64,000 nucleotides of DNA from Pseudomonadota bacterium (GTDB taxonomy: Bacteria > Pseudomonadota > Alphaproteobacteria > RF32 > CAG-239). A program made the position numbers and the translations under genes. Under the pieces are notes generated by a model. That model was not told where the DNA came from, searched no databases, and saw only the letters and a program-made list of their open reading frames with translations. The DNA is taken from contig CAKJXZ020000012.1 of NCBI GenBank assembly GCA_918234285.1, positions 1 to 64,000 of the forward strand. Reading direction: 5' to 3'. Positions within the stretch are counted from its first letter, which is position 1. Each line of letters opens with the position of its first letter. Shown piece by piece: positions 34,701-54,085 of the stretch.

Positions 34701-37700
34701 GTTTGCAAACGTACGCTACCAATGCTGTTACTACCGGTGCGCAGAATGCGACCTTCACCGACAGTACCACAGCGCACGCTTCGGTTAACGGTGCAACCAC
34801 GATTAAGGAAGCAATTTGGAATGTTGCCACTGCGGTTGATACAAACACCACAAAGTTAGATGGTCTGGTAGTTGAAACGACAGATCCGGCTACTCCGGTA
34901 ACTGTTCAAAACGCTATTAACTATGCGAAGAAGCAGGCAGGTGCTTATACTCCGAATGCAACGGTTCCGGAAGGTGTAACCAACATCTATTCTGGTGTAA
35001 CCACGGTTACCGGCGGTTTGGATGCTGTTGGTACTGCAGCTATGGCTAACACAGCTTCTATCAATACTTTGAACGCCGATGCCAGCAATGCTAACTCTGT
35101 TAAAGGTATGATTAAAGCTAATGCTTCTGCTGCTACTTATACAGAAAGCACTGATGAGACCACAATCGGCGGCGCAATCAAAGCTAATGCTAATAAGATT
35201 GCTACCTTGAACGGTACAGGTACCGGTTCGGTTGATAAGAAGATTACCGACCAAGCTGAAAACGCTACCTTTACTGATAGTGCAACAGCTCACACTTCGG
35301 TTAACGGTGCTACTACAATCGGTGGTGCAATTCAAAACATTGCCGGTGCTACTGATGCCAATACTGCTAAATTGGCCGGTTTGGGCGACCAAACGGTTGT
35401 ACAAGCGATTGCTGCTGCCGGTACTGCTGCCGATGGCAAGTATGTTGCTAAGACATATTTGGATAACACCAAGTCCGGTTTGACGGTAGACGCTACTGCC
35501 GGTTCTGAAAAAGTAACGGCTTATGCGAAGAATGGCGAATACAAGACCAGTGCAATTGAAGTTGCCGGTACAACTATCAAACTCGGTACCACCACTAATA
35601 ATGGTGCTGCCGGTACTGCATTTGCCGGTTTAACCTTGAGTAACGATGGCAAGACGGCTACATTTGCTTCTGCTGATACATCCGGTGCGGCTAAAAACGT
35701 TGTAGTTGCCGCCGGTAACGTAACGGCTGATGGCGAAGTTAAGGCAGCCAGTTTCAAGATTGGCGACAACGATGTTACGTCGATTGACAGCGGTGCGGCT
35801 CTGAGTTATGCTGCAGCTGCTGCCGATGCTGATAAGAAAGTAATGGCTACCGACGCTACCGTAATCAATACGGTTAGAGCTTTGGCTACTACTGAAGTTA
35901 AGAACAACGCTAATGCTATTGCTTTGTTGAATGAAGCAGATACCGAAGACGGTTCTGTATTGAACAGCATCAAGACAAAAGCTTCTAGTGCTACTTATAC
36001 AGCAAGTGCTGACCCGACCACAATCGGCGGCGCAATCAAAGCTAATGCTGATAGATTGAATTCTTTGAAGTCTGCTGCTTATGTAGATGTTACTACAACA
36101 TTGCCGGAAGGCAGTGATCTGACAGATCCTACAACACTCAAGGTTAATGACGAACAGATCAATGCATGGGTTGGTACTGAAGGCGCTAAACTCGCCACTG
36201 TAGGCACCACTTATTATGTAATTGGTCAGAAGTTGCTGAACGTTCACCAAGACTTGATGGATGACGGTGCAAATAAGTTCTCTATTGCACGCGCTTTGGG
36301 TGGTACTACCGAGAACGATACTTTGATATCTAAAGTTCAAGATCTTGCGGTTGCGGCACCTCTCGGTGACAGCACAGTTGGTGCATCTATCAATGCTAAC
36401 ACAACTAAATTGGCAGGTCTGAATGCCGGCGAAACAGCTAATCCGACAGTTCAAGATGCTATTGACTATGCAAAAGGACAGGCAGGCGTGTATACATCTG
36501 CTACCGGTATGCAAGATTCCGGCGCAATCTTTGAGGGTAAAACAACATTTACCGCTGCTATGGATGAAGCCGGTGCGCAAATTACAGCCAACAAGGCTCG
36601 CTTTGAGGGCTTTGCCAGCGATACGCAGACTGTTGCTCAATACGTAACAGCTAATGCTAAAGACGCTATTTATACTCCGGCTCAAGAAGAAACTACGCCG
36701 GGTGCTGGTGATGCTGTTCCGGCTGTAACCATCGGTGAAGCTATCCAAGCTAACGCTGATGATATTGCTGAATTGATAGGTAGCGGTGAAGGTTCTATCG
36801 ACGAGAGAATTGCTAAACAGGCTAAAGATGCCGGTTATACATTCGATTCTCAAACCGGTGCAATCACCAAGACAATCGGCGCTGCTATCAAAGACAACGC
36901 TGATGCTATCGATGTTTTGAACGGCGATGATGCTGGCTCGGTTAATAAGAAGATTAAGGACCAAGCTTCTGCTGCTACTTATACGGCAAGTGATGACGCA
37001 ACCACAATCGGCGGCGCAATCAAAGCTAATGCTAATAAATTGGCTGGTTTGAAGAAAGCTGACCAATCTGCTGCCGCTACGGTTCAAGATGCTATTGAAT
37101 CGTTTGCTGATGCTAGCGAAGCTGACTTGGCTAACGTACTGAATGGTACAACCAAGTTCACTAAGGCTAAAATCGGTGACGATTGGGCTGTTACTGAAAA
37201 TGGTAGAAAACGTTTCACAATTCGTGACACAACCACAGATGAGGCCATCGCAGTACTCGATAAAGCCGGTACATTCTCACTGAATGCTTTATCAGATACA
37301 GGCTCTCAGCAATACTTCGAAGTTAGAAACGGTTCTTTGAACCTGCAAAACAATGGTAAGAAAGTAATGATGGCTTCGGCTGCTGACCATACTTTCGCAT
37401 TGTATGATGGTGAAGGCGCTGCAACTGTTAATGTTGACTTGACAAGTGGCAACATCACTTCTAATGGTACTTTGACCTTGAAGGATGCTACGGTTGGCAA
37501 TCAGACCTTGAACGCTGCTAAGATTAAGCAAATCACCACCAACCAAACCAACATTGGCGATATGAGCCAGTTGCATGGTTCTGACAACGCTATGGTTAAC
37601 CGTGACGACAATGATAATCCTGATGGTGCTCCGACTGATATCGTTTCAGCTTTGAACAACATCTCTAAGAGTGTTGGTGATGTTCATGGTTTGAAAGCTA

Positions 37701-40700
37701 AAGTTGCAGGTGGAGCTTATGATACCGGAAGCAGCACTAAATATGCTGACGGTGCAGGCAACTTGTTTGCCGGTTCCGGTACTGACGACCACTTGGCTGA
37801 ATTGGCTGCTTCTATCGGTAACAGAACTTATGATTCTACGGTACCGTATTTGCATGCTAACGAGAGCGTTGCTACTTCGTTGGTTGCTTTGGCTACCAAC
37901 TTGAAGGACGTTGCTGACGATTATGTAAAGCAATCTTACTTTGATAACGGCGAACCGGCTACGGGTACCAATCCGGGCCTGATTTCTATGGGCTCCGGTG
38001 CGAAGAACATCGTAATCGGTAAGGTTAATGCTACTGCTCCGGATTCGGCTGCTAACATTGCTATTGATACTGCTGATGCAACTCGCTCAATCAAGGCTAC
38101 GGTTAGAAATACCGAAAACGAAGAACAAACCTTAACATTGGATAATACAGCAAATGCTCAAGGTTTGGAAGTTGCTTATAATAAGTACGACAATGCCGGT
38201 AATCCTACCGCAACCAAGAAGGTTGTTATCAATAAGGGTGTTGTAACCGCTGATGACAGCTTGGTTGCCAGCGATACAGCAGCAGCTACTTCGTCTACGA
38301 TTAATTCTGACGGTTCTGCTACCTTCGTAGGTGCAAACAAGACAGCCAGCATTGTTGACGGTACGGTAACCGCTAATAAGTTTGCATTCGATGCAACTCA
38401 TTATGCAACCGGTATCGACAATACGGGCGGCGTATTTACTGCTGCTCCGGCTGATAACTATACAATAGCTACCACCAGAACGGTTTATGACAATACCACG
38501 CTGTTGGCAGATGCCACTAACGGCAACTATACAGCTGGTTCGCTCATTAGCGCTATGGGTACTGTTGATTCGGCTATCGGTAACAGAAACTATGCTTCTA
38601 CGGTACCGTATTTGACTGCTAATGAAAGCGTTGCTACTTCGTTGACCGTTTTGGCCAATAACTTGAAAGGTGTTGCCGATAATTATGTAACCAAAGATTA
38701 CTTCAATAACGGTGATACCAGCGGTGACGCAACCAGCAATCCGAACTTCAAGAAGATTTCTATGGGCTCAGGTGCTAACGATATCACTATCGGCGGCGAT
38801 AACACCAACGTTGTTGTTGACAATGCCGGTAAGAAGATTACGTTAACAGCTGCCGGTACGACAACTGATACATTCACCTTTGATAATACAGATGGTGCAG
38901 TATTCAGCAATGTTGACGGTAGCACCACCAAGAGCGTGAAGATTGCCACAGGTAATGTTACGGCTGATGGTGATGTAATCGCAGCTGGTAGCTTGATTGC
39001 CGGTGATAAGACTGGCACGGCTTATGCTGAAGTTAAGTCTGACGGTTCTGCTACCTTCAAGAATGGCAGCAAGGAAGTTACCATTAAAAACGGTGATATC
39101 AATGCTGACGATATCGTTTCGACATCATTGTCTGCTAGCGTAATTAATGGCGCTAAAATCAACGGTGCTAGTATTACTGCCGGCACGATTGATTTCTTGG
39201 CTGGTGGTGTAGCGAAGTCTGTTGATAACGCAGGTAAAGATGTTCTCGCCAGCGGTACAACCATTGATGAAGAAGGCAAAGAACTTGCTTCTACCTTGAC
39301 GGTTAAGAATACGGTTCAAGGTGCAATTTCAGTTGGCGCCGGTGTTAACTATGCTGCTGGCACGGTTAAGACGGCTGTTGCCGACTTGGATGGTGCGATT
39401 GCTGACAGAAAACTGTACAACAATACGAAGTATGCAAATCCGGGTTCGCTCGCTACTGATACTCCGATTAGCTTAGCTCAGGCCATTAAGAACATTGATG
39501 ACAACGTATATGCTAAAGTTGGTGCTGTTGACTTTGCCGATACGATGCACTATGTATCTTCGGCTGATACCGATCTGACTAAGGCCATTAAGAGCATGGA
39601 TACCAATGTATTCAACGCTATCGGTGGTTTGGATAACAGATTCGTTACCCAGGCTTACTTCAACGGTGAGAATGGTGCAAGCGGTGCTTCTTCTGATGTT
39701 GTTATGGGCAGAAGCGCAAGCAGCATTCAAATCGGTGCTCAAAACTTCAGCGGTACAGGTCCGACAGGTTTGAACTCCGGTATTCAGATTGATGTAACCA
39801 GAAGCGGTACCGGTTCGATTACCGACAGCACAATTTCTATCGGTACGAACGGCAACAGCTCGTTTGACGGTATTCAGGTCAGCAGCAACGGTACTAACGT
39901 TGTTATCGGCAATTCTGCCGCTAACGGTGATAAAGTTACCTTCGCTGGCGGTGCTGTAACGGCTACCGGTGCGGTTCAGACCACTGAATTGAAGTTGGCT
40001 AAGACCGAAACCGGTTCGACAACTCCGACCATTACAAGTGCTGATTCTATCGACAACGCAGGTACGGTTATGACCGCTGCTCCGACAGACGGTAAGACCT
40101 TAGCTTCTACCTTGACTGTTTATAACAACATTCAAGATGCTACGGTATTTAAGGCTGCCGAAGTGCCGGCAACTGCACACAACTATGCGGCAGGTGATAC
40201 GGTTAAACAAGCTATCGCCAGCTTGGATAATGTTGCAGGTGACAGACAGGTTTACAGAAGTTCGCACTATGCTAACCCGGCCAGTACCGATATTTCGTTG
40301 GCAAATGCCATCAAGAACTTGGATACGGAAGTTTACACCATTGCTAATGACTATGTAAAGATTTCGTACTTCAACAACGGTGAACCTGATCAAATTGACA
40401 ACGGTTCCGGTACGATGGTTGATAATCCGAACGCTGGTCTGATTTCTATGGGTTCTGGTTCTACCACCATTCAAATCGGTAAGGTTGATGCTACATCCGG
40501 CTTGAACGGTATCATCATCAACAATACTGCTGGCGGCGATAAGACCATCAAGATTGGTAACAATACTGACAACGTTACGGTTAACGGCGGTGATTTGACC
40601 GCTACCGGTAAGGTTATTGCCAACGCGGTTGAAGCTGCTACTTCTATGAAGATTGGCACAAGCGAAGCTACCTTGTTTGATAATGCAACAGCAGCTATTA

Positions 40701-43700
40701 CGGCTAGTGTTGCCGGCGCCGATGGTGCAGAAAAGAAGATGGCTAACGTTGCCGAAGTTTACAACACGGTTAAGACCAATGCTGAAGAAGCTGATTACAC
40801 CAAGGGTGGTACAACAACCACAATCGGTGCTGCAATCAAAGCTAATACTGATGAGATTGCTAAGAGAGATGTTTCTATCTCTACAGCTAAGGTTGGTAAC
40901 GTAGAAGGTGTTGAACTCGTTACGGTTACAGATGGTACCGATACGGCTACTACTTTGACCAGTACCGGTTTGGCTACATTCTTTGATAAGAAGCAAATTT
41001 GGTTGAATAAAGAACTTGGTATTGATTCCGGCGATTTGACCGGCAATCCGTATCATACGGCATTTAATGGTGCCTTCAACCTGACCAATGATGCTGATAC
41101 CACCATGACCGGTGCTATTATGGAACTGGATAGTTCTATTGGCAACAGAAAGCTGTACAACAATACGCAGTACGCAAATCCGGGTTCTGCCGCTGGTGAT
41201 GATCCGATTGACGTTGCAACGGCTATTCAGAACATGGATACCAATATCTATGCTAAGATGGGCGATGTTAACTTCGCTACCGATCCGGCGATGCACTATG
41301 TTGAAGCAAGTGATAACCTGACTGATGCAATTAAGCACATCGACACCAAAGTTTATAACGAAATCTCCGGTTTGGATGACAAGTATGTAACCAAAGCTTA
41401 CTTCAATAACGGTGAACTGTCTACGGGCACTAATCCGGGCTTGATTTCGATGGGTTCCGGCGCAAGTCAGATTAACATCGGTAAGACAGTTCCGGCAGGA
41501 ACTCCTACTTCTGCAGTACTTGATTCCGGCTTGTCTATCAACAACACAACCGGCGATGTAATGCTCGGTCAAATTTCTCAAGTTGGCTCAGGCGCTACTG
41601 CGAAGAGCGTTGTTGAAACCGGTGTTAACGTTGATAATGCTACGCATACCGCAAGCCTTATCTCGGCTAACGGCCAATCCAGTATTAATGCGGTTGATGT
41701 TAACCAGACCACAATTAAACTCGGTATGACCACGACTGATACCAACGGCAACCCGTTGTTCTCCGGCGTATCGATTAACAATGGTGTTATGACCAACGCT
41801 AATCCGACCAACGCTAACAAGAAGTCTACTGTTTCTTCTGATGCTGTTGTAGTAACAGATGGATCTAGCACTTCTTCAATGGCTGCCAGCGGTATGGCTG
41901 TTGCCGGTGCTACCGGTACAACCTTAATCGGTGCCGGTGCTATCTCGGCTTCCGACGGCGCTGGTAACGTAACCGGTATTAGTACTACGGGCGTATCCGT
42001 AACCGATGGTAGTAGTACCTCTTTGGTTGCGGCTGACGCTATGGCTGTTATGAAAGGAAACGACTCTTCATCGATGTCGGCTACCGGTGTAACTATTAAA
42101 GATAACAGCGGTAACTCTAACACCATCAACAAGTCTGGTATGACGGTTGCTGATAGTCAGGGTAATACTGCGGCTGTCACAACTACCAGCATGAGTGTTG
42201 CTAACGGTTCTAAGAAGGCTGAAATGACTACCGACGCTATCTCGATTACCGATGGTAACAACACCACGTCGATTACTGCCGGTAGCGTAACCACCAAGGA
42301 AGTGATTGCTGAGAAGTTCGCATTCAATGATACCGATTATGCAACCGGTATTGATGCAGGTAATGATGTCAACGGCGGCAGTGCTGTAGTTGACGGTCAC
42401 ACTATTGCTACGACCGCTACGGTTAAGGCAAGTGTTGACGGTATGGTTGCCGATATCAAGAAGGAAATTCACGGTGATCAGAATGATTCGACAGTACCGG
42501 TTACTCTCGGCGATTATTCTGACACAGTTGTTGTCGGTAGTAGTTCGGTTGACGCCGTAAGCCATGAGAGAACTCTGTGGTCCGGTATGGAAATTGATAC
42601 CACAAGAGATGCTACTTCTGGTGATGTAACCAACCGTGAAGTAACGCTTGCTGCTATCATCGACGACGATAACGGTGTTGAAGTTGACTTGGATGCCGCT
42701 AACCAAACCATTGAGTTGACGGCAGCCGGTAAGGATACGAATAACAAGGATTCTGAAACCGGTGTCAAGATTGACAACAAGAATCAGAAGATTACCTTGA
42801 GTTCGACTGATGAGGCTTCGGAAAACACAACCGGAATCGAAATCAGCAACAAGGATGGTACCATTGCTATTTCTTCGGCTAACGATGATGATCATACCGC
42901 CAGCGGCTTGACCATTGTTAACGACAAGGCAAGTGGCAAACATACCATTGACTTGGCTTACACCGAGAAAGACAATAACGTTACGTCCACTTACGGCTTG
43001 AGCATCGATGGCGATAATCAGACCTACAGCTTAGGTTCTGAAACCGCAACATCGTCTTCGGGCTTAGATATCAATGCTAATACCAGTGTTTATACATTAG
43101 GTAAGAGCACGATTTCTGGCACTACGAAAACGCTTGACTATGGTATGACCATGGATGCTGCTAACGGTGTAACCACGTTTGCTGCTAGCGACGGTGAAGG
43201 TGTTACCATGAATAAGGGTGACATGACTGTTACCAGCAGTGCTACGGTTGGTTCTGAAACCGGCGGTGTATTGTCCGGTGTTAAACTTGACAAGTCCGGT
43301 ACGGCTCAGGCTTCTGAGAGCGTTACTGTAGGTCAGGTTAAAGCTGACGGCAGCTTGGACGGCAACGGCGTTCAGATGAAGAACGACGGCTCTGCTAAGT
43401 TCAGCGCTACCGAAGGTGCCGTGACCGTTGAGAAGGGCGGAGTTATCGCTGATAACAACGTAACCGTTGGCGACAAGTCCGGTGATAACTACATCGACAT
43501 GGCTAAGCAAACCGACGGCAGCTTAAAAGCTACCTTCGCTTCTGCTGACGGTAATGTTGAAATTGCCGGTGGTAATGTAACTGCCGACAACAAGGTTACC
43601 GCTAATGACATCGAAGCTAAGAACAGCATCTTTGTCGGTGATCCGGCAGGTGAAATTGCTGCTCTGTACAAGAAAGGTCTTGTTGCAGTTAAAGACGCTG

Positions 43701-45169
43701 ACAACCAAGCTACTTACGGTAGCGGCGGTATGTGGGCTAAAAAGAAGACTGATGATGGCAAGACATATGCTGCTGACTTCGGTGGTACAGGCTTGAGCGT
43801 TAGCCAATTGGATCCTTCAGATCCTACAAGTGTGATTGCTTCTGCAGGTGTCAGCGAAACCGGTCTGTGGACTCAGAGCGACAGCAAGAAATCATCATAT
43901 GGCAACGATGGTTTGTGGATTGGAAACAAAGCTGAAACAGCATTTGCAAGCCTCAACGAAAAAGCCTTATACATTACGGATGGTACCGATACATCCAACA
44001 TTGGTTTGGACGGTATTTACACTAGCCAAAACATCTCTGCTGCAGGCAACTCTTATGTTGGCGGCAACTCGCAAGTTGACGGTGTTGCCACCTTCGGTAA
44101 GGAGGCCGGTAAGCAAGTTGTTATTGACAGCGGTGACGTAACTGCTGATGGTAAGGTTAAAGGTAAAGACCTCGAGGCTACCAACAGCTTCACCTTGGCC
44201 GGTACTCAGGTTCACTCGATTGATACCGGTGCCGCTAAGTCTGCTCCGTCTGCCGACGCGTTGGCTACAACGGCTTCGATCTATCGTAATGCTGAAGATG
44301 GTTTGTATACACCGGCTTCCGGTACATACACCACGGCTAATGCCGCAACCATCAACGAAGCTTTCGAGGCTTTGGACAATATTGTTGGTAACTTCCCGGA
44401 TGGTTTGAATTATGAAAACCACAACCTCGACAATGGCGGTAAGGCTACTCCGGAAACCATTGTTGATGCCTTCAACAATATTGATGCTACTTTGGGTACC
44501 ATCCACGGCTTGGCAGCTAAACGCGGCGCTGACTACAAGGGCAACCTTGCAGAAGGTACCACGGTTGAGATGCACTTGTCCGCTTTGGATGACTCCATCG
44601 GCGATCGTACAACCATTACTAACGAAAACGGTTCGAACGGTTATGCGTTCTCTACCGATACGATGTATGTGGCTGACGTTCTGACCGATCTGGCTTCGCA
44701 AATCGGCACTGCCGGTGAGTTGGATGCTGCTAAGTTTAACGGCGTAAGCAAAGATAACACCGTTAATGCTAACATCGCTGCTCTTAACAACACCATCGGT
44801 GATGTATCCGAATTGCAAGAGACCACATACGCTCAAGGCGACACAATTGTTGACTCGATTAAGAGTGTTGACAACAAGTTGGGTAACTTGGATACACGTA
44901 TGGAAAGAGCTGAACGTGACTTGAAGGATGTTCACCACGAATTGCGTAGAGGTATGGCTTCCATGGCTGCTATGTCGGCTTTGGTACCGAACTCTCGCTC
45001 GACTGGTAAGACATCGTTGTCTCTCGGTACGGGTGCTTACAGCGGACATGGCGCTGTTGCAGTCGGTGGTTTCCACTATCTGACAGACAACTTGATGTTT
45101 AATGCGGGCGCCGCATGGAGCAACAGCCGCGATGCTGTTTACCGTGTAGGCTTAACGTATTCATTCTAA
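31724..45169 (+). CDS. Giant trimeric autotransporter adhesin (YadA-like anchor), 4481 aa
   Basis: C-terminal coiled coil plus RRGMASMAAMSAL...SLGTGAY...YRVGLTYSF anchor; A/T/G/N/D-rich repetitive passenger; N-terminal signal peptide. Confidence 0.95.
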   Translation: MKYSKSAIGLLTAQYRSVLKKCWMINVGLFALGAALLTATPAEAADPLANQIVVRTDGPIAKYGEPSTTIIGADVALSTITLTDSVIKAGLGMTSGLKARYDESGNEIASYYAKAADYTTTDDLIAGYVSKGNNDSDWYKLLNGSEQFNTLNVKGTNLTTAGGVLNIDNAARVKNTLSITDGANTGTLQLYDGTLGSASFKTNNLYIGSSTTAVDGVASTVDDVSTHANYLVTNGAVNTAISAAKTAAGVYTSADHMQDSGAIFAGKTTFTAAMDEAGKQITANASKINTLMGDDTGSVNQKIASAFTDHTTTNIVATGTDSGKLVTSGAVAAKIADAQSEAGTYTSATGMQASGKIFNGKITFTAAMDEAGAQIMANASNIATNTSDIATLNGTGAGSVDNKIINQAKDAGYTFSGTTVTKTIGAAIKDNADAIEVLNGDAAGSVNKKITDQAQSATFTDDAGTGAHTSIAGATTINAAIKNVAGAVDTNTQAITDLGKSRDTAGSIKNTVRTEAADADYDASATYSTGTIGNAIKTNADNIATHTTALADLALSDGTKPTGITVQQAIDSARTGETGKTLNVGENASEIVIGKTTTAYLDMNTAATGAGAGDVALKTNGDGISTGLAMAKDGTIKLGRLTGGTTLTNGIEISGNTIKFSGADASSTTDDASITNGALTANSATLNSLTLGSTPVTGVSTAAAISTAPAANDTLATTSAVYNTVKGVTDTLETYATKLEVFGDATHAADLGKDAATVNLGAAGSTTAINIGDNANGAGIAIANPTTGAKTASLKVKGDGGDNGVFATATGAKLGKSISSTNFDGVSFVEGTGTNTGTVTIGDSTKNVQFLNGGVTATGGIQGATLKATAATGGLNLNGTIADSIDNDGTAPTAGGKSTKILASTATVYNAMTKATTDAQAYTPAAAVDGTDADPKIFHGINKVTDALDKAGVKIQTNTGNIAANTTKLDGLKDYDNADAASVQAALSSYKTGLQTYATNAVTTGAQNATFTDSTTAHASVNGATTIKEAIWNVATAVDTNTTKLDGLVVETTDPATPVTVQNAINYAKKQAGAYTPNATVPEGVTNIYSGVTTVTGGLDAVGTAAMANTASINTLNADASNANSVKGMIKANASAATYTESTDETTIGGAIKANANKIATLNGTGTGSVDKKITDQAENATFTDSATAHTSVNGATTIGGAIQNIAGATDANTAKLAGLGDQTVVQAIAAAGTAADGKYVAKTYLDNTKSGLTVDATAGSEKVTAYAKNGEYKTSAIEVAGTTIKLGTTTNNGAAGTAFAGLTLSNDGKTATFASADTSGAAKNVVVAAGNVTADGEVKAASFKIGDNDVTSIDSGAALSYAAAAADADKKVMATDATVINTVRALATTEVKNNANAIALLNEADTEDGSVLNSIKTKASSATYTASADPTTIGGAIKANADRLNSLKSAAYVDVTTTLPEGSDLTDPTTLKVNDEQINAWVGTEGAKLATVGTTYYVIGQKLLNVHQDLMDDGANKFSIARALGGTTENDTLISKVQDLAVAAPLGDSTVGASINANTTKLAGLNAGETANPTVQDAIDYAKGQAGVYTSATGMQDSGAIFEGKTTFTAAMDEAGAQITANKARFEGFASDTQTVAQYVTANAKDAIYTPAQEETTPGAGDAVPAVTIGEAIQANADDIAELIGSGEGSIDERIAKQAKDAGYTFDSQTGAITKTIGAAIKDNADAIDVLNGDDAGSVNKKIKDQASAATYTASDDATTIGGAIKANANKLAGLKKADQSAAATVQDAIESFADASEADLANVLNGTTKFTKAKIGDDWAVTENGRKRFTIRDTTTDEAIAVLDKAGTFSLNALSDTGSQQYFEVRNGSLNLQNNGKKVMMASAADHTFALYDGEGAATVNVDLTSGNITSNGTLTLKDATVGNQTLNAAKIKQITTNQTNIGDMSQLHGSDNAMVNRDDNDNPDGAPTDIVSALNNISKSVGDVHGLKAKVAGGAYDTGSSTKYADGAGNLFAGSGTDDHLAELAASIGNRTYDSTVPYLHANESVATSLVALATNLKDVADDYVKQSYFDNGEPATGTNPGLISMGSGAKNIVIGKVNATAPDSAANIAIDTADATRSIKATVRNTENEEQTLTLDNTANAQGLEVAYNKYDNAGNPTATKKVVINKGVVTADDSLVASDTAAATSSTINSDGSATFVGANKTASIVDGTVTANKFAFDATHYATGIDNTGGVFTAAPADNYTIATTRTVYDNTTLLADATNGNYTAGSLISAMGTVDSAIGNRNYASTVPYLTANESVATSLTVLANNLKGVADNYVTKDYFNNGDTSGDATSNPNFKKISMGSGANDITIGGDNTNVVVDNAGKKITLTAAGTTTDTFTFDNTDGAVFSNVDGSTTKSVKIATGNVTADGDVIAAGSLIAGDKTGTAYAEVKSDGSATFKNGSKEVTIKNGDINADDIVSTSLSASVINGAKINGASITAGTIDFLAGGVAKSVDNAGKDVLASGTTIDEEGKELASTLTVKNTVQGAISVGAGVNYAAGTVKTAVADLDGAIADRKLYNNTKYANPGSLATDTPISLAQAIKNIDDNVYAKVGAVDFADTMHYVSSADTDLTKAIKSMDTNVFNAIGGLDNRFVTQAYFNGENGASGASSDVVMGRSASSIQIGAQNFSGTGPTGLNSGIQIDVTRSGTGSITDSTISIGTNGNSSFDGIQVSSNGTNVVIGNSAANGDKVTFAGGAVTATGAVQTTELKLAKTETGSTTPTITSADSIDNAGTVMTAAPTDGKTLASTLTVYNNIQDATVFKAAEVPATAHNYAAGDTVKQAIASLDNVAGDRQVYRSSHYANPASTDISLANAIKNLDTEVYTIANDYVKISYFNNGEPDQIDNGSGTMVDNPNAGLISMGSGSTTIQIGKVDATSGLNGIIINNTAGGDKTIKIGNNTDNVTVNGGDLTATGKVIANAVEAATSMKIGTSEATLFDNATAAITASVAGADGAEKKMANVAEVYNTVKTNAEEADYTKGGTTTTIGAAIKANTDEIAKRDVSISTAKVGNVEGVELVTVTDGTDTATTLTSTGLATFFDKKQIWLNKELGIDSGDLTGNPYHTAFNGAFNLTNDADTTMTGAIMELDSSIGNRKLYNNTQYANPGSAAGDDPIDVATAIQNMDTNIYAKMGDVNFATDPAMHYVEASDNLTDAIKHIDTKVYNEISGLDDKYVTKAYFNNGELSTGTNPGLISMGSGASQINIGKTVPAGTPTSAVLDSGLSINNTTGDVMLGQISQVGSGATAKSVVETGVNVDNATHTASLISANGQSSINAVDVNQTTIKLGMTTTDTNGNPLFSGVSINNGVMTNANPTNANKKSTVSSDAVVVTDGSSTSSMAASGMAVAGATGTTLIGAGAISASDGAGNVTGISTTGVSVTDGSSTSLVAADAMAVMKGNDSSSMSATGVTIKDNSGNSNTINKSGMTVADSQGNTAAVTTTSMSVANGSKKAEMTTDAISITDGNNTTSITAGSVTTKEVIAEKFAFNDTDYATGIDAGNDVNGGSAVVDGHTIATTATVKASVDGMVADIKKEIHGDQNDSTVPVTLGDYSDTVVVGSSSVDAVSHERTLWSGMEIDTTRDATSGDVTNREVTLAAIIDDDNGVEVDLDAANQTIELTAAGKDTNNKDSETGVKIDNKNQKITLSSTDEASENTTGIEISNKDGTIAISSANDDDHTASGLTIVNDKASGKHTIDLAYTEKDNNVTSTYGLSIDGDNQTYSLGSETATSSSGLDINANTSVYTLGKSTISGTTKTLDYGMTMDAANGVTTFAASDGEGVTMNKGDMTVTSSATVGSETGGVLSGVKLDKSGTAQASESVTVGQVKADGSLDGNGVQMKNDGSAKFSATEGAVTVEKGGVIADNNVTVGDKSGDNYIDMAKQTDGSLKATFASADGNVEIAGGNVTADNKVTANDIEAKNSIFVGDPAGEIAALYKKGLVAVKDADNQATYGSGGMWAKKKTDDGKTYAADFGGTGLSVSQLDPSDPTSVIASAGVSETGLWTQSDSKKSSYGNDGLWIGNKAETAFASLNEKALYITDGTDTSNIGLDGIYTSQNISAAGNSYVGGNSQVDGVATFGKEAGKQVVIDSGDVTADGKVKGKDLEATNSFTLAGTQVHSIDTGAAKSAPSADALATTASIYRNAEDGLYTPASGTYTTANAATINEAFEALDNIVGNFPDGLNYENHNLDNGGKATPETIVDAFNNIDATLGTIHGLAAKRGADYKGNLAEGTTVEMHLSALDDSIGDRTTITNENGSNGYAFSTDTMYVADVLTDLASQIGTAGELDAAKFNGVSKDNTVNANIAALNNTIGDVSELQETTYAQGDTIVDSIKSVDNKLGNLDTRMERAERDLKDVHHELRRGMASMAAMSALVPNSRSTGKTSLSLGTGAYSGHGAVAVGGFHYLTDNLMFNAGAAWSNSRDAVYRVGLTYSF

Positions 45170-47902: not shown

Positions 47903-48505
47903 ATGAAAAAAATTTTATTGTTAGCCGGTGTCGCCGCATTGTTTGCCTCTAATGCTTCGGCATCAATGTTTACTCCGTATTTGTCGGCTAAGGTTAAGTA
48001 TGACTTTGTTGATAGTACCGTAAAGTACGAAAAAAGCGATCTTGACCATAGAATCAATATGGATAAAGATGTTTTTGCCGGCAGCGTTGCATTCGGTTTG
48101 CGTCCGGAAGCTCTTCCGGCACTTCGCGGCGAATTGGAATACAACCACAACAAGACCATTAAAAAGACGGTTGACGATGGTTCTGCCAGAACGGAAATTC
48201 ACTATGTTTTGCTCAATATGTACTATGATTACATAACTTGCACTCCGTTTACACCGTACCTCGGCGTCGGCTTGGGCGGTTCGAGCATAAAATACTCGGT
48301 TGAAGACCAAAGTGACCGTAACAACCGCTTTGCATGGCAAGTCGGTGCAGGTATTGCCTATGCTTTCAATACCAATATTTCGGCTGATGTAGGCTATCGT
48401 TTTGTTGATTTGGGCCACATGTCCAGAAATCACGATGGTGCTAAAACCAGAATTGATTCCAATGCTCACGAACTTTATCTCGGTTTGAGATATACGTTTG
48501 AATAA
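47903..48505 (+). CDS. Small outer-membrane beta-barrel protein (opacity/OmpA-like)
   Basis: Signal peptide, LRGELEY, NMYYD, TPYLGVGLG, FAWQVGAG, DVGYRF, C-terminal GLRYTF. Confidence 0.9.
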   Translation: MKKILLLAGVAALFASNASASMFTPYLSAKVKYDFVDSTVKYEKSDLDHRINMDKDVFAGSVAFGLRPEALPALRGELEYNHNKTIKKTVDDGSARTEIHYVLLNMYYDYITCTPFTPYLGVGLGGSSIKYSVEDQSDRNNRFAWQVGAGIAYAFNTNISADVGYRFVDLGHMSRNHDGAKTRIDSNAHELYLGLRYTFE

Positions 48506-48569
48506 GCGAAATTAACGCATAATTGCGATAAGGGACGGACTAGCTCCGCCCCTTTTTTGTTGCCGATAA

Positions 48570-49670
48570 ATAAGATTTTTCATTAATAAAACATTGGCGG
48601 GCTATCAATCCGGTCGCGGAGGGGTGGATAGCTACGGCGTAGACCACAGCGGTTTTACCACGCGCGATGAACTGGAATATCAAAGCGCGCGATTGGCCAG
48701 AGAAAATCAACTGGCGGAAGGTTTTGCTAAGCAAGGAATTGCCGAAGAAAACTACCCGCAGTATGGCACAAATTTTTGGGGTGGTTCGCCGGAAAATAAC
48801 TACGGCTTCGGCACTTCAAATATTAAGCAAAATATTGAAAATATTACAAACCGGTTGAACAACGGCGCAAACAGCGGGCAAGTCTTCGCAAATTCCGACC
48901 ATTCTGTCAACACCGAAAGCTTAGTCGGTCAACCAAGCAGTTATTTTCAAAATAATAGCTCTGCTTTTGTAAATAATAACACCAGCGGCTTAGGAAATAA
49001 CAATACAAGCGGTTTGAATAGTACTGCCACTGGCGGATTCAATAACGACAGCACAAAACTTAATCAAAATAACTTGAGCGAAAATGGTACGAGTGAGGTG
49101 GATACATTACAACAATCTCAACAATTATCACAAATTCCGGAATGGCAAAAACCAGCATACAGCTCTACACACATGTATGCGTGGCAGAGAAATAAGCAAC
49201 CACCCATATTGTGGCAAACTAATCAACAAGATATGCTTTCCCCCGGACGTGCAATTGATTATAAAAAATTGGCTGAGGGTATCTTGAATAACCAATCTGT
49301 ACAGCCAGATATGATACAACATGATAATCAAAAAGGATATAACATTCGAAACGATAATAATTATGAGTGGACAAACTCAGAACCTTATGATCGTGGAGGA
49401 GATATAATATCAGTGTACAATAATTTTAGAAAAATAAACACAGAAAACCCAATTATATCACCAACATCATCTGGAAACAAAGTTACGGATTTTGTTGTTA
49501 TACAAAGAATTAAAAAGTTGTATCCTCACTTGGCAAAAATGATAAGAGCATATGATTTAGGTTACAGAGGGGCAGGTTATTATGATAATTTAAAAAGAGC
49601 ATATCGCGAAAGTCACCGTTATGATAGAGTATTTTCTGATGAGGAACTTTTATCGTTGCAAAATCGGTAA
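48570..49670 (+). pseudogene. 5'-truncated (no ATG/RBS) polymorphic effector/toxin-like cassette 1
   Basis: Frame opens after TAA 48567; only a TTG at 48594 without RBS; conserved head, Asn/Ser-rich linker, low-GC C-terminal domain. Confidence 0.6.
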
Positions 49671-49811
49671 TATTTGATTACAATTACATAAACCCCAAAA
49701 ACAGAGAGTATGTAGCAGAATTTCTGCTTCTGCATATTGGGCACATATTAGGAATACTTCGCTACAACTCTCTGTTTTTTTTGAAAACTGGAAATATGCG
49801 GAGAGTGTAAT

Positions 49812-50285
49812 ATGAAAAATATTGATAAAGAAGTTTGTATATTCGGCGGTTGTTATTTTGCAAGCGAATATATCATTTATATTTTTACTGGATTTTTACA
49901 ATTTCTCATACAACATCTGCCGCAAAATTTGAATGCAATTTTTATTTTCTTGAGTGATGCTCTCACCATATTCTCCGGATTAATGTTTGTGCTGTTTGTG
50001 GTACTTTTATTACGGTATTTATTTACACAAAAGTCTTTATCGATTATTAGCAAAATTCACAACAAATTTCCGAAGATTTCGGTGTATTTGTATTATTTGG
50101 GGTATGCAGGTTATATTTTGCTTGCGCTGAATGTGTTGCTATTGATACCGCTTTATGCTATGAATTTGAGTGAAATTGTGCAAAATATCATCGTATGGAC
50201 ATTAACAGTCATTAATATTTTGGGATTATTATTCCCCCTTGTTTTTGCAAGTTATAAGGTATTTTACAAACCCAAAAGATGTTAG
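49812..50285 (+). CDS. Multi-pass membrane protein (putative immunity to cassette 1)
   Basis: About 4 hydrophobic helices, GGAG RBS, low GC. Confidence 0.75.
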   Translation: MKNIDKEVCIFGGCYFASEYIIYIFTGFLQFLIQHLPQNLNAIFIFLSDALTIFSGLMFVLFVVLLLRYLFTQKSLSIISKIHNKFPKISVYLYYLGYAGYILLALNVLLLIPLYAMNLSEIVQNIIVWTLTVINILGLLFPLVFASYKVFYKPKRC

Positions 50286-50294
50286 ATAGATTAA

Positions 50295-50975
50295 CTCAAT
50301 AACAGCGGATTTGGTAACGGTACAAATAACGGTCAAGTCTTTGCAAATTCTGATTATACCGTCAATACCGAAAGCCTAGTCGGCAAACCGAGCAGTTATT
50401 TTCAGAATGGTAATTCTGTTTTTGCAAATAACAATACCAGCAATTTGGAAAATAATAACACAAGCGGCGCTAATACAACAATAGGGCAACAGGATAATAA
50501 TGTAGGAAGTAATAATTCTATTGTTCAAAGTATTACTGCATTAAATCCGATTAATGCCGGTTATCAAATCGGACAGAAAATTGGTGAATTTGCTGCTGAT
50601 ACAAAGTTAGCATATGATTATTGGCAAAAGATGAATCAAACAGGAAACCAACTTGTTACAACGTTCGGTTCTGGACAAGGTGCTGATATAGATAATTATT
50701 ACCATCCATTATTACAGTGCGAATTAGCAAAAATAAGTCCGCAAAGTCGAAATAATGGTATTGCTTTGGGTTATGCTAAAGAGTATCTGATGGATTATCC
50801 TAAAAAGAGGTTTTTACAACACCAAAGCCATGATGAAATTATGAAAGATAGTAGAAAAGACTTGCAAAACAATCTTTATGGTAGTAACTTAGGGTATGAT
50901 AATCCAAGCAGAAGCTGTGAGGATTTGTTGGATGACAGAAGAACACCCAATATGCGCAAATTAGGCATAAAGTAA
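50295..50975 (+). pseudogene. Start-less orphan cassette 2: homology arm plus alternative C-terminal domain
   Basis: In-frame GQVFANSDYTVNTESLVGKPSSYFQN matches cassette 1; C-terminus has DNYYH...C...G..KE...D...DLQNN..G. Confidence 0.7.
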
Positions 50976-51030
50976 TTATCGAATGATATAGAGGGAGTTA
51001 ACGTTATTTAATCCCCTCTATATTTATTAC

Positions 51031-51249
51031 ATGGAATGTGTTAAAATGAAGAAAAATATATTAAAATCAATTCTGTATGTGGTTTATAAATGCGCATTGT
51101 ATTTTATTGTGGCAACTTTTATTGCCGTTCTTTTTATACAAATATTTTACCTCTATGAAGAAAACAAATTTATAGACGATTGTGTTAAAAAAGGAGATAC
51201 CCGGGAACATTGTCAGAGTATTTGGTCTGAAATAGATGCCTTAAATTAA
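51031..51249 (+). CDS. Small single-TM protein with a Cys pair (putative immunity)
   Basis: TM helix then FIDDCVKKGDTREHC; start may be ATG 51046. Confidence 0.65.
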   Translation: MECVKMKKNILKSILYVVYKCALYFIVATFIAVLFIQIFYLYEENKFIDDCVKKGDTREHCQSIWSEIDALN

Positions 51250-51269
51250 AATTATAGAGGAGGATTGTG

Positions 51270-51470
51270 ATGAGCTTATTCAAAGATATATCAACAGACG
51301 TTATTAAACTATTGTGCTGGATTGGGTTCTTTATTGCATTATTTTTTATTGCAACTACAGCTTTTTATTATTGGGATTTCTATATAAATTTGGAACAAAA
51401 TACAAAATTGATTCAAGAATGTATGGATGAAGGTAATAGTGAAGAAGTCTGTAAAGGCAGAGTTTATTGA
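51270..51470 (+). CDS. Small single-TM protein with a Cys pair, paralogue of the previous gene
   Basis: AGGAGG RBS; TM helix then LIQECMDEGNSEEVC. Confidence 0.7.
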   Translation: MSLFKDISTDVIKLLCWIGFFIALFFIATTAFYYWDFYINLEQNTKLIQECMDEGNSEEVCKGRVY

Positions 51471-51738
51471 ACTTCGAGGACATAGCAAACAAAATAACTT
51501 TACCTCTCAAAGTTAAATACAAAAGAGGTTGGTAATTTACATAATAGGCAAGAGTTGAAATATACTCTTGCTCTTTTTTATTTACACTGTATTATATTCT
51601 TAATTCAACTTAAAATGGTGCAATTATGCTTAAAAATTTACTTCTGATGATGAAAAACAATAAAGAAAAAACGGCTCCCCTCTGTTTTTGTGGATGCTGT
51701 GCTTCAATTTATTATGTTTGAGAACAGCGGAGAGTAAA

Positions 51739-52311
51739 ATGGTAACAAAAGATAGAATATATATGACATTTAAATATCTCGGGTGTTTTCTTGCATGCAA
51801 TATTTTATTGTGGGCTATGATATGGCTTATTGCCGAATTAGACCAAGACAAACTTGAGCTGATTGATTGCTTTGCGTTTGAATACGGATATATTACAAAA
51901 ACACTTAGTTACCAAAGTTATTTACAAGGAGCTTGCACCTACCCGCAAATATGCACGTGCGCCGTAAATGCCGAATGGATATTGTTTTTCTATATTTGGG
52001 CTTTGCCGATTTTTGTTTTTTATGAAGTTTTTCGGCGCAAAATCATTCCGGCACAATACACCTATTTGTTTGTTTTTGGCGAAATTGCTTTTTGGTCGGT
52101 TATATGTTTTTTATGCCAAGACAATGCACCCTTTTTATGGTTTCCGCTCGGGAATACTTACAAAATCATCGCACCTATGGCAATTATTATGCTCGCATTA
52201 CACAGCTTGCCGCCGAAAGTACTTAAAGTGCTCTCTACAATCATCGGCACGATTTACGGGTTGTATTGGGGAATTTTTATAGCAATGATTGTCCCGAACT
52301 TTTTCCGCTAA
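51739..52311 (+). CDS. Hypothetical multi-pass membrane protein
   Basis: GGAG RBS, several TM helices, terminator at about 52312-52340. Confidence 0.7.
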   Translation: MVTKDRIYMTFKYLGCFLACNILLWAMIWLIAELDQDKLELIDCFAFEYGYITKTLSYQSYLQGACTYPQICTCAVNAEWILFFYIWALPIFVFYEVFRRKIIPAQYTYLFVFGEIAFWSVICFLCQDNAPFLWFPLGNTYKIIAPMAIIMLALHSLPPKVLKVLSTIIGTIYGLYWGIFIAMIVPNFFR

Positions 52312-52351
52312 AAGAAGGAGGCCACAGAGCCTCCTTTATTGTGTAATATGA

Positions 52352-52453
52352 GTGGCGCAGAATTTCAGCAAGCAAGGAATAGCCGAAGAAAACTACCCGC
52401 AGTTCGGCACCAACTTTTGGGGCGGAACACCGGAAAATAACTACGGCTTCGGC
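52352..52453 (+). repeat. ~100-bp direct repeat of 48711-48812 (gene fragment)
   Basis: Encodes FSKQGIAEENYPQFGTNFWGGTPENNYGFG versus FAKQGIAEENYPQYGTNFWGGSPENNYGFG. Confidence 0.9.
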
Positions 52454-52609
52454 GCCAACCCCGTATATCTCCTAAGGTTTGATTGATTTTAGGCAGAATA
52501 AATTTATTTAAATGATGTCATTATCCAAAAAATTTGTTTTTGACAATTTTTTACTTGATTTTTTGTACAAAATGTGTTTTTATAAGAAGACCAGAGTAGG
52601 AGAACATCA

Positions 52610-54085
52610 ATGACAGACGAGAATATGGAAGATATCACGGAAACGACGGAAGCGGGAGATACCGAGGATACACAAGTCGCGGAAGATATCGAGCAAGAAG
52701 CAGCGCAAGAGGAGGAAACTACGATTCCGCCTGACATGTCGTTGCAAATGTTGGCAGAAACAATTGATCCTATCAGCCGTAAAGAGCTGTTTGAACACGG
52801 ATTGAACATGTTGCAAATTTCGGCGGAGAAAAAGCCGATTGTTGCTGAATATTATAAGAGTCTGCGTGATGAGTATTTCGGTCCGGATGTACCGGAAGAA
52901 GAAGCAATAAACGCGCCGATTGAAGATGAACGGCAACGAAATTTGGTTGGCGAATTTTTAGATAATAAGCTTGACTTGATTAAGTCAGATGTGGTGAGTC
53001 TTAATTCGGATAGTGTGAATAAAGCGTTTGCGGAAATTTTTACTTTGGTCGGTGTAAAAGTAAGTCCCGAAAAGTTGGAAGAAAGTTTTTACGATCAACT
53101 GTTTGAAACGCGTTGTGAGAATATTCCGGAACTGTTGGACGAATACAAAATTTTGCAACTCAACCGCAGTTTATACCATATTTATGCCAACAAAAGCGGT
53201 ACGTTGGCTCTGAACGGTATTATCTTGCAAATGGAAAAATACTATTCTCAAAAAGATATAACGCGTGAACAGTTGGCGCAGTTTTATTATAACATCGGTT
53301 GCATTTATGACGTTCATTCTTTGCAGAAAAATACCGAAAAGATGGTCAAAGAAGAACATATGTTGGCACTGAGTTATAAGCGTAAGGCTTTGGATAAAAC
53401 CAGAAAGAATATGGAATTGATTTTGAATGTTCATCGTGACTGGTGTACCAACTACGACTATAAACCGCAGAAAATTCTCGATGCTTGCCATCGAGTAATC
53501 GATAATTCCGGCGACAGTCGAAGTCTGTATCAGGCCCATATGCTTTATGCCGAAACTCTGCAAGACTTTAGAGGCACCGAGGGTTTCGGTAGTCAGCGCG
53601 AAAAACGCGTGGCTTCAATTATCAAGCACTATCGCAAAGCGGTAAATTATACCGAAAATGAAGAAGAAAAAATCGATATACTCGATATGATTTCCGCGCA
53701 GCAGAAAAATTACGATAAGCCGGCTTATATCCGTACGCGGATGGAAATGGCTTCGTTATTGAATTATCGCGCCAAAATCAGAGAATACAGTCGTTTGGTT
53801 GATGAAACCGATGATTTCAAATTGAAATCGTTTTTGTTTATGTCCGGAATTAATGAGTTTTACGAACTCAGCGGTATTGATGACGAAGACCGCCAGTTGT
53901 ATGACGATTTGGATGCCAAATTCCGCAAGACCATTGAGGATAACGGCGGTGATGCAAAAGTTATTGCCAAATTGAATGAATTGAAAAAAGAATACGGCAC
54001 TGCAGATAAAAAAGAGCCGGAAATGTTATTTGTACGGGCATCAACCAGCGGACATGATTTTTTCGGTTCAGGTAAAGGCAGATAA
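52610..54085 (+). CDS. Helical (TPR-like) hypothetical protein with acidic N-terminus
   Basis: 491 aa, AGGAG RBS; TPR-like helices such as LAQFYYNIGCIY...ALSYKRKAL. Confidence 0.8.
   Translation: MTDENMEDITETTEAGDTEDTQVAEDIEQEAAQEEETTIPPDMSLQMLAETIDPISRKELFEHGLNMLQISAEKKPIVAEYYKSLRDEYFGPDVPEEEAINAPIEDERQRNLVGEFLDNKLDLIKSDVVSLNSDSVNKAFAEIFTLVGVKVSPEKLEESFYDQLFETRCENIPELLDEYKILQLNRSLYHIYANKSGTLALNGIILQMEKYYSQKDITREQLAQFYYNIGCIYDVHSLQKNTEKMVKEEHMLALSYKRKALDKTRKNMELILNVHRDWCTNYDYKPQKILDACHRVIDNSGDSRSLYQAHMLYAETLQDFRGTEGFGSQREKRVASIIKHYRKAVNYTENEEEKIDILDMISAQQKNYDKPAYIRTRMEMASLLNYRAKIREYSRLVDETDDFKLKSFLFMSGINEFYELSGIDDEDRQLYDDLDAKFRKTIEDNGGDAKVIAKLNELKKEYGTADKKEPEMLFVRASTSGHDFFGSGKGR

Follow-up and report, generated by a model that had tools for sequence, protein, structure and literature searches.

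Polymorphic toxins, as Zhang et al. reportedly defined them in 2012, join a conserved N-terminal part to highly variable C-terminal toxins. This definition of a polymorphic toxin system is restated in section 29 of the study by Burroughs et al. (eLife 2025, PMC12419801). Here, we analysed a stretch of 64,000 nucleotides from an alphaproteobacterial genome (hereafter the window). Its positions 48570-52486 carry an array made up of a truncated toxin open reading frame (ORF), a second ORF starting in the linker, a 34-codon fragment of the conserved N-terminal module (called the head) and four membrane-protein genes. In all likelihood, this region is a silent array of orphan cassettes belonging to a polymorphic antibacterial toxin system with a new conserved N-terminal module. 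The head represents a real new family of a known kind of system, and a preliminary description of the array, made from its DNA, was largely right. We found a conserved head with variable C-termini, a linked gene that co-varies with them and orphan 5'-truncated cassettes behind a full gene, and there was no recognised trafficking domain in the head according to Pfam, NCBIfam and the sequences of the PDB.

Like the family described here, the CdiA-CT, Rhs and MafB systems have a conserved N-terminus, a variable toxin, a downstream immunity gene and truncated cassettes with a homology arm. In contrast, our family lacks FHA, Rhs, PT-VENN and DUF1020 domains as well as a signal peptide, and its conserved part is limited to ~95 amino acids (aa) plus a linker. 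The N-terminal or pre-toxin Pfam domains of contact-dependent inhibition (CDI), Rhs, MafB and LXG proteins were absent from the ORFs of the window and from 27 representative toxins, and no sheath gene of a type VI secretion system (T6SS) was found in the 151 genomes of the same order. The family resembles pesticin and colicin M in its lack of a signal peptide, its conserved N-terminus with a disordered Gly/Asn-rich stretch, the type of its payloads and its candidate membrane-anchored periplasmic immunity proteins. However, neither a central receptor-binding domain nor a lysis gene was seen, a TonB/TolB box is a possible resemblance only, and the orphan arrays and very high copy number set the family apart. 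Like our family, the LXG toxins of Gram-positive type VII secretion systems combine a short helical domain at the N-terminus with a variable toxin at the C-terminus and have orphan cassettes downstream. One of them, TelC, is presented in the consulted passages of PMC12419801 as an LXG toxin with a Lipocone domain that cleaves lipid II. The host here is in contrast Gram-negative, with outer-membrane beta-barrel and TolB genes, and there was no LXG or WXG Pfam match. Finally, cell-wall payloads, periplasmic immunity and a VirB/D4 type IV secretion system (T4SS) in the host are features shared with the X-Tfe effectors. The latter, found in Xanthomonadales, harbour a conserved VirD4-binding domain at their C-terminus and are not known to have an orphan-array layout, whereas the conserved module is N-terminal in our family and no C-terminal VirD4-binding domain was matched by Pfam.

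In the model that we favour, a full-length gene codes, in this order, for the ~95-aa head beginning at Met1, a disordered Asn/Gly/Ser-rich linker with a second conserved motif, and an exchangeable C-terminal toxin, and it is followed by one or two putative immunity genes. The toxins would attack peptidoglycan, its lipid-linked precursors or the membrane from the side of the periplasm, and the immunity proteins would be located in the membrane or the periplasm. The window holds two start-less toxin 3' parts with their putative immunity genes, a lone immunity-type gene and a scrap of head. The immunity genes may have been retained as protection against kin with armed versions, and homologous recombination in the head or linker arms could place the toxin parts downstream of an expressed head.

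The window corresponds to G000:C12:1-64000, where G000 is the source genome, and C12, C17, C24 and C69 are contigs within it; labels in L, P, G and X denote toxin loci, family proteins, genomes and sequencing runs, respectively. The array and its flanks comprise the following features.

47903-48505: outer-membrane beta-barrel gene (Pfam OMP_b-brl), left flank of the array
48585-48860, + strand: 5'-truncated head of cassette 1 (head-model positions 8-95; E 1.1e-42 with the head hidden Markov model)
48861-49100, + strand: Asn/Ser/Gly-rich linker of cassette 1, with the second homology arm at 48861-49012
49101-49670, + strand: C-terminal domain CT1 including the stop codon, no recognised family
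49812-50285, + strand: 157-aa membrane protein with four hydrophobic stretches (counted by eye), putative immunity-type partner of CT1 (cluster 10)
50295-50975, + strand: start-less ORF of cassette 2, opening at the junction of head and linker, with an arm at 50306-50467 and a predicted prok-SAA domain at ~50550-50972
51031-51249, + strand: membrane protein of 72 aa, single-pass and with a short two-Cys tail (cluster 1), putative immunity-type partner of cassette 2
51267-51470, + strand: 67-aa paralogue of the preceding gene (cluster 1), with a strong ribosome-binding site (RBS) and an ATG at 51270
51547-51572, + strand: terminator-like hairpin closing module 2 (9-pair stem, then a T run)
51614-51721, + strand: ~30-codon 5' remnant of a small cluster-24 gene
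51739-52311, + strand: 190-aa multi-pass membrane protein of immunity type (~five hydrophobic stretches; cluster 13)
52352-52486, + strand: head fragment (head-model positions 50-83, end of homology at 52453) in a 44-codon ORF
52610-54085: 491-aa gene unrelated to the array, right flank

The G+C content falls to 30-34% in the payload part (~49000 to ~52000) compared with ~45% in the flanks. Small membrane-protein genes follow each module as initially described (49812-50285; 51031-51249, 51267-51470 and 51739-52311); the 72-aa gene might alternatively start at the ATG at 51046. The third head fragment reported at 52352-52453 matches model positions 50-83, and its DNA (52353-52453) is 94-95% identical to full-length heads. 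The reported absence of Rhs, FHA, VENN, LXG, PAAR and Hint motifs also stands, as none was detected with Pfam-A in the array ORFs.

The ORF of cassette 1 (48570-49670) extends from stop to stop over 366 codons. It was said to have neither an ATG nor an RBS, and we indeed found no ATG in its first ~198 codons; its only early start codon is a TTG at 48594, without a purine-rich Shine-Dalgarno sequence upstream. Compared with its full-length paralogues, the cassette 1 head is short of its first 8 codons, and their RBS and promoter region are missing. DNA homology to these paralogues begins at 48585-48588, an unrelated A+T-rich stretch abuts codon 9 of the head, and the DNA identity between 48585-48955 of the window and C12:81981-82352 amounts to 85% (E 5e-116). 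The second start-less frame noted at 50295 was also recovered: ORF 50295-50975 (226 codons) opens straight after the preceding stop, repeats the linker in frame and continues into a C-terminus (CT2) unrelated to CT1. The repeated linker segments (48861-49012 and 50316-50467) are 79% identical over 152 nt (E 2.9e-30), and this repeat is also present in other loci.

ORF 1 might instead be expressed as is from TTG 48594, yielding a working toxin short of its first 8 residues only. TTG is an accepted start codon, the public gene call P0029 uses it, and the frame of ORF 1 is intact. However, the full copies and the neighbouring genes have strong Shine-Dalgarno sequences and this TTG has none, a hairpin followed by a T run lies just upstream of it, behind the outer-membrane-protein gene (by eye), and the conserved Met-Asp/Asn-hydrophobic-aromatic opening of all full-length heads (90/90) is missing from cassette 1. 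We consider expression from this codon quite improbable.

A search of the source genome with the head and linker (148 aa) as a query returned 10 matches in three loci, including two outside of the window.

C12:81964-86421: locus 2, full-length copy and further cassettes
C69:9781-6880, - strand: locus 3, full-length copy and a further cassette

Both full-length paralogues start with an ATG located eight codons before the onset of homology with the window copy, and they have a strong RBS (AAAGGAGG, then ATG) and a common ~200-bp upstream region. The gene at C69:9781-8474 is intact (436 aa, P0001) and is the sole intact full-length copy in G000. The preliminary description had postulated a conserved carrier domain whose expressed full-length copy lies elsewhere. 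Of the two full-length copies in G000, that at C12:81964 is itself frame-broken at ~C12:82612, between linker and payload. The frame change falls at a short tandemly repeated word (L013 3608-3620) and could be either a genuine break or a fault of the assembly. It had also been anticipated that the head would occur at several places, at least one of them with a true start or a delivery domain. Multiple loci were found (three in the source genome), with diverse C-termini and with full copies that have an ATG and an RBS; the delivery domain was not, the head itself being N-terminal in 90/90 cases. The ratio of non-synonymous to synonymous substitutions (dN/dS) of the start-less head and linker is 0.13 and 0.09 relative to the two full copies, with dS values of 0.8-1.1. 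Such low ratios at this degree of divergence indicate that constraint acted at the protein level while these sequences diverged, and that they did not arise by a recent local duplication.

We then determined the extent of the head family. The first 150 residues of P0001 retrieved 242 proteins at E<=1e-3 (449 candidates), nearly all of them metagenomic; the few named ones are annotated 'hypothetical protein' in metagenome-assembled genomes (MAGs) labelled Alphaproteobacteria bacterium. An exhaustive HMMER search with full P0001 matched 336 of 1.84 billion representatives, some by its C-terminus only, and 203 stretches of the genome_contigs collection encode a relative. With one exception, the 76 retained loci originate from MAGs of the rumen and human gut that bear the label Alphaproteobacteria or proteobacterium. 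This exception, L080, is a 2,995-bp contig binned as Gastranaerophilales that holds a head. The 96-position head model, built from alignment A1, was run over these 76 loci and the 3 loci of G000 (79 loci in total). It gave 119 matches, all co-oriented within a locus; 90 of them begin with a Met at model positions 1-3, and the other 29 begin at positions 6 to 66. Since the 90 full copies start at this Met, the ~95-aa head itself is the N-terminus, and none of them (0/90) has a delivery domain upstream. When two frame-shift splits are set aside (a third, L033, was spotted by eye), 18/27 truncated copies lie downstream of a full copy within the fetched DNA, and 3/27 are at its edge. Across 28 diverse sequences of the head, 14 columns are invariant, and the head has no predicted signal peptide. 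It has no match in Pfam-A or NCBIfam, its profile gave 0 matches to PDB sequences at E<=1, and no description of it was found in the literature searched, which covers few subscription journals.

For order- and class-level counts, we used a head-only alignment (A4); an order-level search with A1 (93/151 genomes) was dropped, as A1 also matched C-termini. The head is present in 57/151 genomes of the order and in 5/20 genera, with up to 20 matches in one 1.6-Mb genome. The head-bearing genomes amount to 18/23, 17/34, 10/13, 3/7 and 8/8 in individual genera, and to 0/19 in one well-sampled genus. In the class, two of 401 genomes have it, i.e. the source genome and G537 from another family. The family is confined to few genera of uncultured Alphaproteobacteria of the gut. 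In G537, a serine recombinase and a restriction-type helicase are neighbours of the toxin gene (L123, G537:C50, 7622-12048), and a signal-peptide gene is convergent to the latter, which looks like a mobile island. A conserved gene coding for a protein of 150-258 aa is found ~100 bp upstream of full-length toxin genes (L018-L085; 23 members in 21 loci). Its longer forms have a sub-threshold helix-turn-helix (HTH) match at the N-terminus, and it possibly regulates the toxin genes; it was not seen upstream of the source-genome copies.

Grouping of the 93 complete toxins by their last 110 residues yielded 18 clusters at a coarse level and 28 at a fine level. Among 27 representatives, 12 have Pfam matches above the curated cut-off, all to cell-wall families: GH108 in six (four of them also with PG_binding_3), SAA in two, pesticin in one, YkuD with Tlde1 in one and a VgrG3-like C-terminal lysozyme in two. 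Sub-threshold matches were to SLT (17.5 bits) and PBECR2 (21.2 bits vs a cut-off of 27.1), and 13/27 representatives have no Pfam match. As far as they are recognised, the payloads are thus all predicted to be envelope-directed.

A neighbour gene within 500 nt is present for 84/93 toxins. Its product has a hydrophobic segment in 66/84 cases, compared with 245/693 for the other genes of the same loci. The preliminary description had expected C-termini and downstream genes to pair across genomes, and this is what we observed: a neighbour cluster is common to 86/250 pairs of toxins with the same C-terminus, as opposed to 58/3214 pairs with different C-termini (all from different loci). A reservation is that related genomes were counted as independent, and therefore these pair counts are overstated; the trend itself is unambiguous. 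GH108 and pesticin-type payloads have as their partner a signal-peptide protein encoded on the opposite strand. Neighbour genes thus co-vary with the C-terminus.

Alternatively, the array could be a phage lysis cassette, with endolysin-like genes and holin-like small membrane proteins. GH108 and lysozyme-like C-termini do occur beside small membrane proteins, and the head is found in one 5,120-bp 'Bacteriophage sp.' record, an unannotated sequence from faeces (MT838567.1, 4399-4686). In a protein atlas, the clusters nearest to the head and CT1 are viral, although the best scores (0.75-0.79) are below the useful level. On the other hand, this is the only head among 50,697 phage records, plasmid records have 0, an IMG/VR scan gave 4 relatives and returned no locus, the surroundings of the window array are devoid of phage genes, and the toxins are multi-copy with swapped C-termini that include SAA and Tlde1 types. 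We regard a lysis cassette as extremely unlikely. Both MT838567.1 and L080 are probably mis-assigned fragments.

The two C-termini of the window differ in what could be learnt about them. The AlphaFold2 (AF2) model of ORF 1 has a mean predicted local distance difference test (pLDDT) score of 52.6, and it was left out of the fold search. Only head residues 10-50 reach a pLDDT of 84-89, with a long helix at 23-46, and a second helix at 77-91 is the sole other part modelled with some confidence; the aromatic/Gly-rich loop between them and the entire linker are modelled as disordered (pLDDT <50 for the linker). CT1 has no match in Pfam or NCBIfam, and its comparison to the SAA alignment with hhalign gave a probability of 0.1%. 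CT1 is rare; its single database homologue, P0260, is 56% identical and has a different N-terminus and a Pro/Gln-rich linker. Shorter, weaker relatives of CT1 are present in L083 and L035. All CT1-type toxins of the 79 loci (3/3; window, L083 and L035) are directly followed by a cluster-10 gene for a four-pass membrane protein. This membrane-embedded partner might point to a membrane-directed action of CT1, which is a guess.

A further copy of CT1 lies in a fourth locus of the source genome (G000:C24:73930-76859, - strand), which has a different N-terminal head. This locus contains a full gene whose C-terminus is lysozyme-like, a gene for a Cys-rich signal-peptide protein, an orphan and a multi-pass membrane gene. 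The orphan (C24:75041-74385) is start-less, begins inside this second, unrelated head and carries the CT1-type payload, and the multi-pass membrane gene follows it. The linkers of this locus and of the head-1 family have a short conserved motif in common. CT1 is thus an uncharacterised payload common to three different N-termini.

Cassette 2 has a full-length head-bearing counterpart, P0007, which is 80% identical overall. The toxin of L027, also full-length and head-bearing, is 92% identical to CT2 over its last 110 aa and is followed by the same pair of small cluster-1 genes. Pfam SAA (PF00277) did not match the window ORF at E<=0.1; however, CT2 aligns with family members that do bear this domain (60.4 bits for L026 and 56.5 for L020, with a cut-off of 30.8). 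In the SAA-type alignment (A3), D133, H137, E163, D189 and G196 are invariant, and N193 is nearly so. The AF2 model has a pLDDT >90 for residues 100-226 and presents the four-helix core and short fifth helix of an SAA-like fold. It superimposes on human SAA1 and mouse SAA3 with Z scores of 11.4-12.2 and an rmsd of 2.2-2.5 A over all 99-105 target residues, while the next unrelated structure has a Z score of 6.1. Foldseek placed the same SAA entries on top, with probabilities of 0.98-1.00 but E values of 0.14-0.45. Judging by this modelled fold, the C-terminus of cassette 2 is a prok-SAA Lipocone domain. The array had been assigned to an unrecognised family, which therefore applies to the head and to CT1, and not to cassette 2.

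The consulted parts of Burroughs et al. (PMC12419801) describe prok-SAA domains as Lipocone toxin tips of polymorphic toxins, predict that they cleave lipid head groups, e.g. those of lipid II, as TelC does, and expect membrane or periplasmic immunity proteins to counter them. According to section 9 of that paper, the active-site positions include a helix-4 motif, s-N-x-x-G-R, of which window CT2 retains N and G, with Ser in place of Arg. One member of our family, MBR1601519.1 (P0030), is listed in its supplement (three files searched). In contrast, the single-pass two-Cys neighbour of cassette 2 is not among the immunity folds of section 30, and the head is not mentioned in the consulted passages. 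This neighbour type, cluster 1, has 29 members in 21 loci. Among the other toxins with an identity of 65% or more to CT2 in their last 110 aa, 3/4 have a cluster-1 gene directly behind them.

In the remainder of the array, the 51739-52311 gene has no toxin beside it. Its cluster, 13, has 6 members in 6 loci; in L016, the cluster-13 gene comes after a lytic-transglycosylase-like C-terminus (cluster 14), and in L015, L017 and L022, the small cluster-24 gene is intact before it. The 3' end of 51739-52311 together with the head fragment is ~80% identical to C12:83826-83973 in the second locus, which is the junction of an immunity-type gene and an orphan. The second locus also has a 77-codon scrap that matches the C-terminal end of the pesticin-type protein P0054 (C12:85597-85827) and, at its far end, a head scrap with stops (C12:86335-86421).

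Several points weigh against the reading of these cassettes as a functional silent store. The proposed toxicity, immunity and recombination rest on analogy. The TTG at 48594 could start ORF 1, as said above, and CT1 was modelled with a pLDDT of 35-69 and no recognisable fold. The match to PBECR2 is nuclease-like and, if real, would break the envelope-only rule. For SAA-type C-termini, the pairing between toxin and neighbour is loose: a cluster-1 gene is among the next three genes for only 4/16 members of the CT2 fine cluster. Lastly, given the scraps at 51614-51721 and 52352-52486 and the frame-broken full copy, part of the array may simply be decay.

Decay might even account for all of it. 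The array would then be the wreck of once-intact toxin loci, in which the immunity genes alone remain of importance and the start-less toxin parts would not be used again. The cassettes lack a start and a promoter, the window has a 34-codon head scrap and a 30-codon gene remnant, the full-length gene of the second locus is frame-broken and that locus contains more scraps at both of the positions given above. However, neither of the two long frames (366 and 226 codons) is interrupted by a stop, the dN/dS of the head relative to the full copies is low (0.09-0.13), and the layout of truncated copies behind a full one recurs in other genomes (18/27 cases). We consider this explanation unlikely and retain that of a silent cassette array.

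Sequencing runs provided information on the stability of the site. Logan contigs of run X1 reproduce 48300-48617 and 48791-52700, including the truncated junction, without a difference; X1 is possibly the source sample of the window itself, so it does not represent independent support. A contig of run X5 departs from the window right after 48584, and one of run X4 joins 48495 to 52528. Therefore, the content of the site varies between strains. The left boundary of this variation (48584) coincides with the onset of head homology. Joints with 88% likeness (48694 to 52379, 48717 to 52359 and 48863 to 50848) were rejected as traces of recombination, as paralogous loci or other strains could explain them. 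From the homology arms and the strain variation, we infer that cassettes may be re-armed by recombination.

The genomes were also searched for systems that might deliver the toxins. TssC (PF05943) was detected neither in the source genome (0/1, 100% complete) nor in the genomes of the order (0/151), and no phage-type sheath was found. The sole match to a C39 peptidase is a 271-aa ORF at a contig end; export by a C39 exporter through a double-glycine leader was discarded, as the Gly-Gly of the source-genome head is not conserved in the family. The source genome codes for a VirB-type T4SS (G000:C17:20739-36826, with two VirB2, VirB4 and two VirB8 genes and a 1789-aa ORF) and for VirD4 (G000:C24:33033-35246). 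VirB4 is single-copy in 150/151 genomes of the order, a conservation that is unusual for genomes of 1.3-2.0 Mb. No secretion genes are recurrent near the toxin loci (79 loci), the sole recurrent neighbour there being the HTH-type gene.

One hypothesis is that the head is a recognition signal for this chromosomal VirB/D4 T4SS, which would kill bacteria as in Xanthomonadales. The near-universal VirB4, the VirD4, two VirB2 and two VirB8 genes of the source genome and the absence of a detected T6SS, phage sheath or C39-ABC exporter are consistent with it, as is G537, the sole head-bearing genome outside the order, which has an 815-aa VirB4 and in which TssC was not found. The payloads and periplasmic immunity presumably resemble X-Tfe/X-Tfi pairs. 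However, known T4SS signals, including XVIPCD, are C-terminal or internal, unlike the N-terminal head, and neither the window ORFs nor the 27 representatives have an XVIPCD-type Pfam match. No toxin loci lie beside T4SS genes. In addition, the T4SS is found nearly everywhere and the head in 5/20 genera, and therefore the T4SS profile does not discriminate head-bearing genomes. G130, of the same genus as the source, has 2 head matches and VirD4 (99% complete, ~20 contigs), but VirB4 was detected neither with the Pfam model nor with the source genome's own VirB4 protein; this may be an assembly gap. Altogether, we find a T4SS signal doubtful.

Alternatively, the head and linker could be the import module, for receptor binding and translocation, of a diffusible colicin/pesticin-like bacteriocin acting in the periplasm. 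The proteins have no signal peptide, no secretion genes recur in their vicinity, and short conserved motifs are found inside a disordered Gly/Asn-rich stretch. The immunity types are similar to the ones known for pesticin, colicin M and pore-forming colicins. In the head, the aromatic/Gly-Glu-Asn-Asn segment may be similar to the TolB-binding epitope of colicin E9, which is a lead only. Co-folding of the head (residues 1-110, A1) with TolB (window 7401-8720, residues 21-439, A5) gave a score of 0.00 and a mark of 0.32, which speaks neither for binding nor against it. The HTH-type gene ~100 bp upstream of full-length genes in 21 loci and the location of the G537 gene in a recombinase-bearing island with no exporter nearby also argue for import. 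So does the nature of the payloads, which include a pesticin-type muramidase and the domain predicted in the consulted parts of PMC12419801 to cleave lipid carriers. In contrast, neither a receptor-binding domain of the usual size nor a lysis gene was seen, contact-dependent systems are those that typically have arrays of 5'-truncated orphans, and up to 20 head copies in a 1.6-Mb genome would be unusual for bacteriocins. An import module is thus a tentative possibility, and the rest of the probability goes to some other route than these two.

In the same neighbourhood, 3 kb upstream of the array, the window contains a 4481-aa repetitive Thr/Ala/Gly-rich ORF (31724-45169, + strand), the end of which resembles a trimeric-autotransporter anchor (by eye).

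The kind of system found here was already known, as was one of its payloads, published in 2025 (PMC12419801, consulted passages). The novelty lies in the head, in CT1 as a payload, in several families of immunity-type genes and in the existence of such arrays in genomes in which no T6SS sheath gene was found. We tentatively suggest that the 95-aa head, together with at least two other short heads that have the same linker and payloads and occur in the same genomes, might mark an undescribed delivery route for envelope toxins, present in very high copy number and refreshed from silent arrays. The head would act either as an N-terminal signal for a bacteria-killing VirB/D4 T4SS that belongs to the core of the entire order or as a minimal colicin-like import module.

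The hosts are uncultured Alphaproteobacteria with small genomes that are widespread in rumen and human-gut metagenomes. Their investment in cell-wall toxins is heavy, as more than one third of the sampled genomes have the head, some with a dozen or more copies. Payloads known elsewhere as T6SS effectors (Tlde1 and VgrG3-like) or as a bacteriocin (pesticin) are here joined to a single new N-terminal module. Finally, the natural full-length and orphan versions of prok-SAA toxins, with their candidate immunity genes, make the predicted activity on lipid head groups directly testable.

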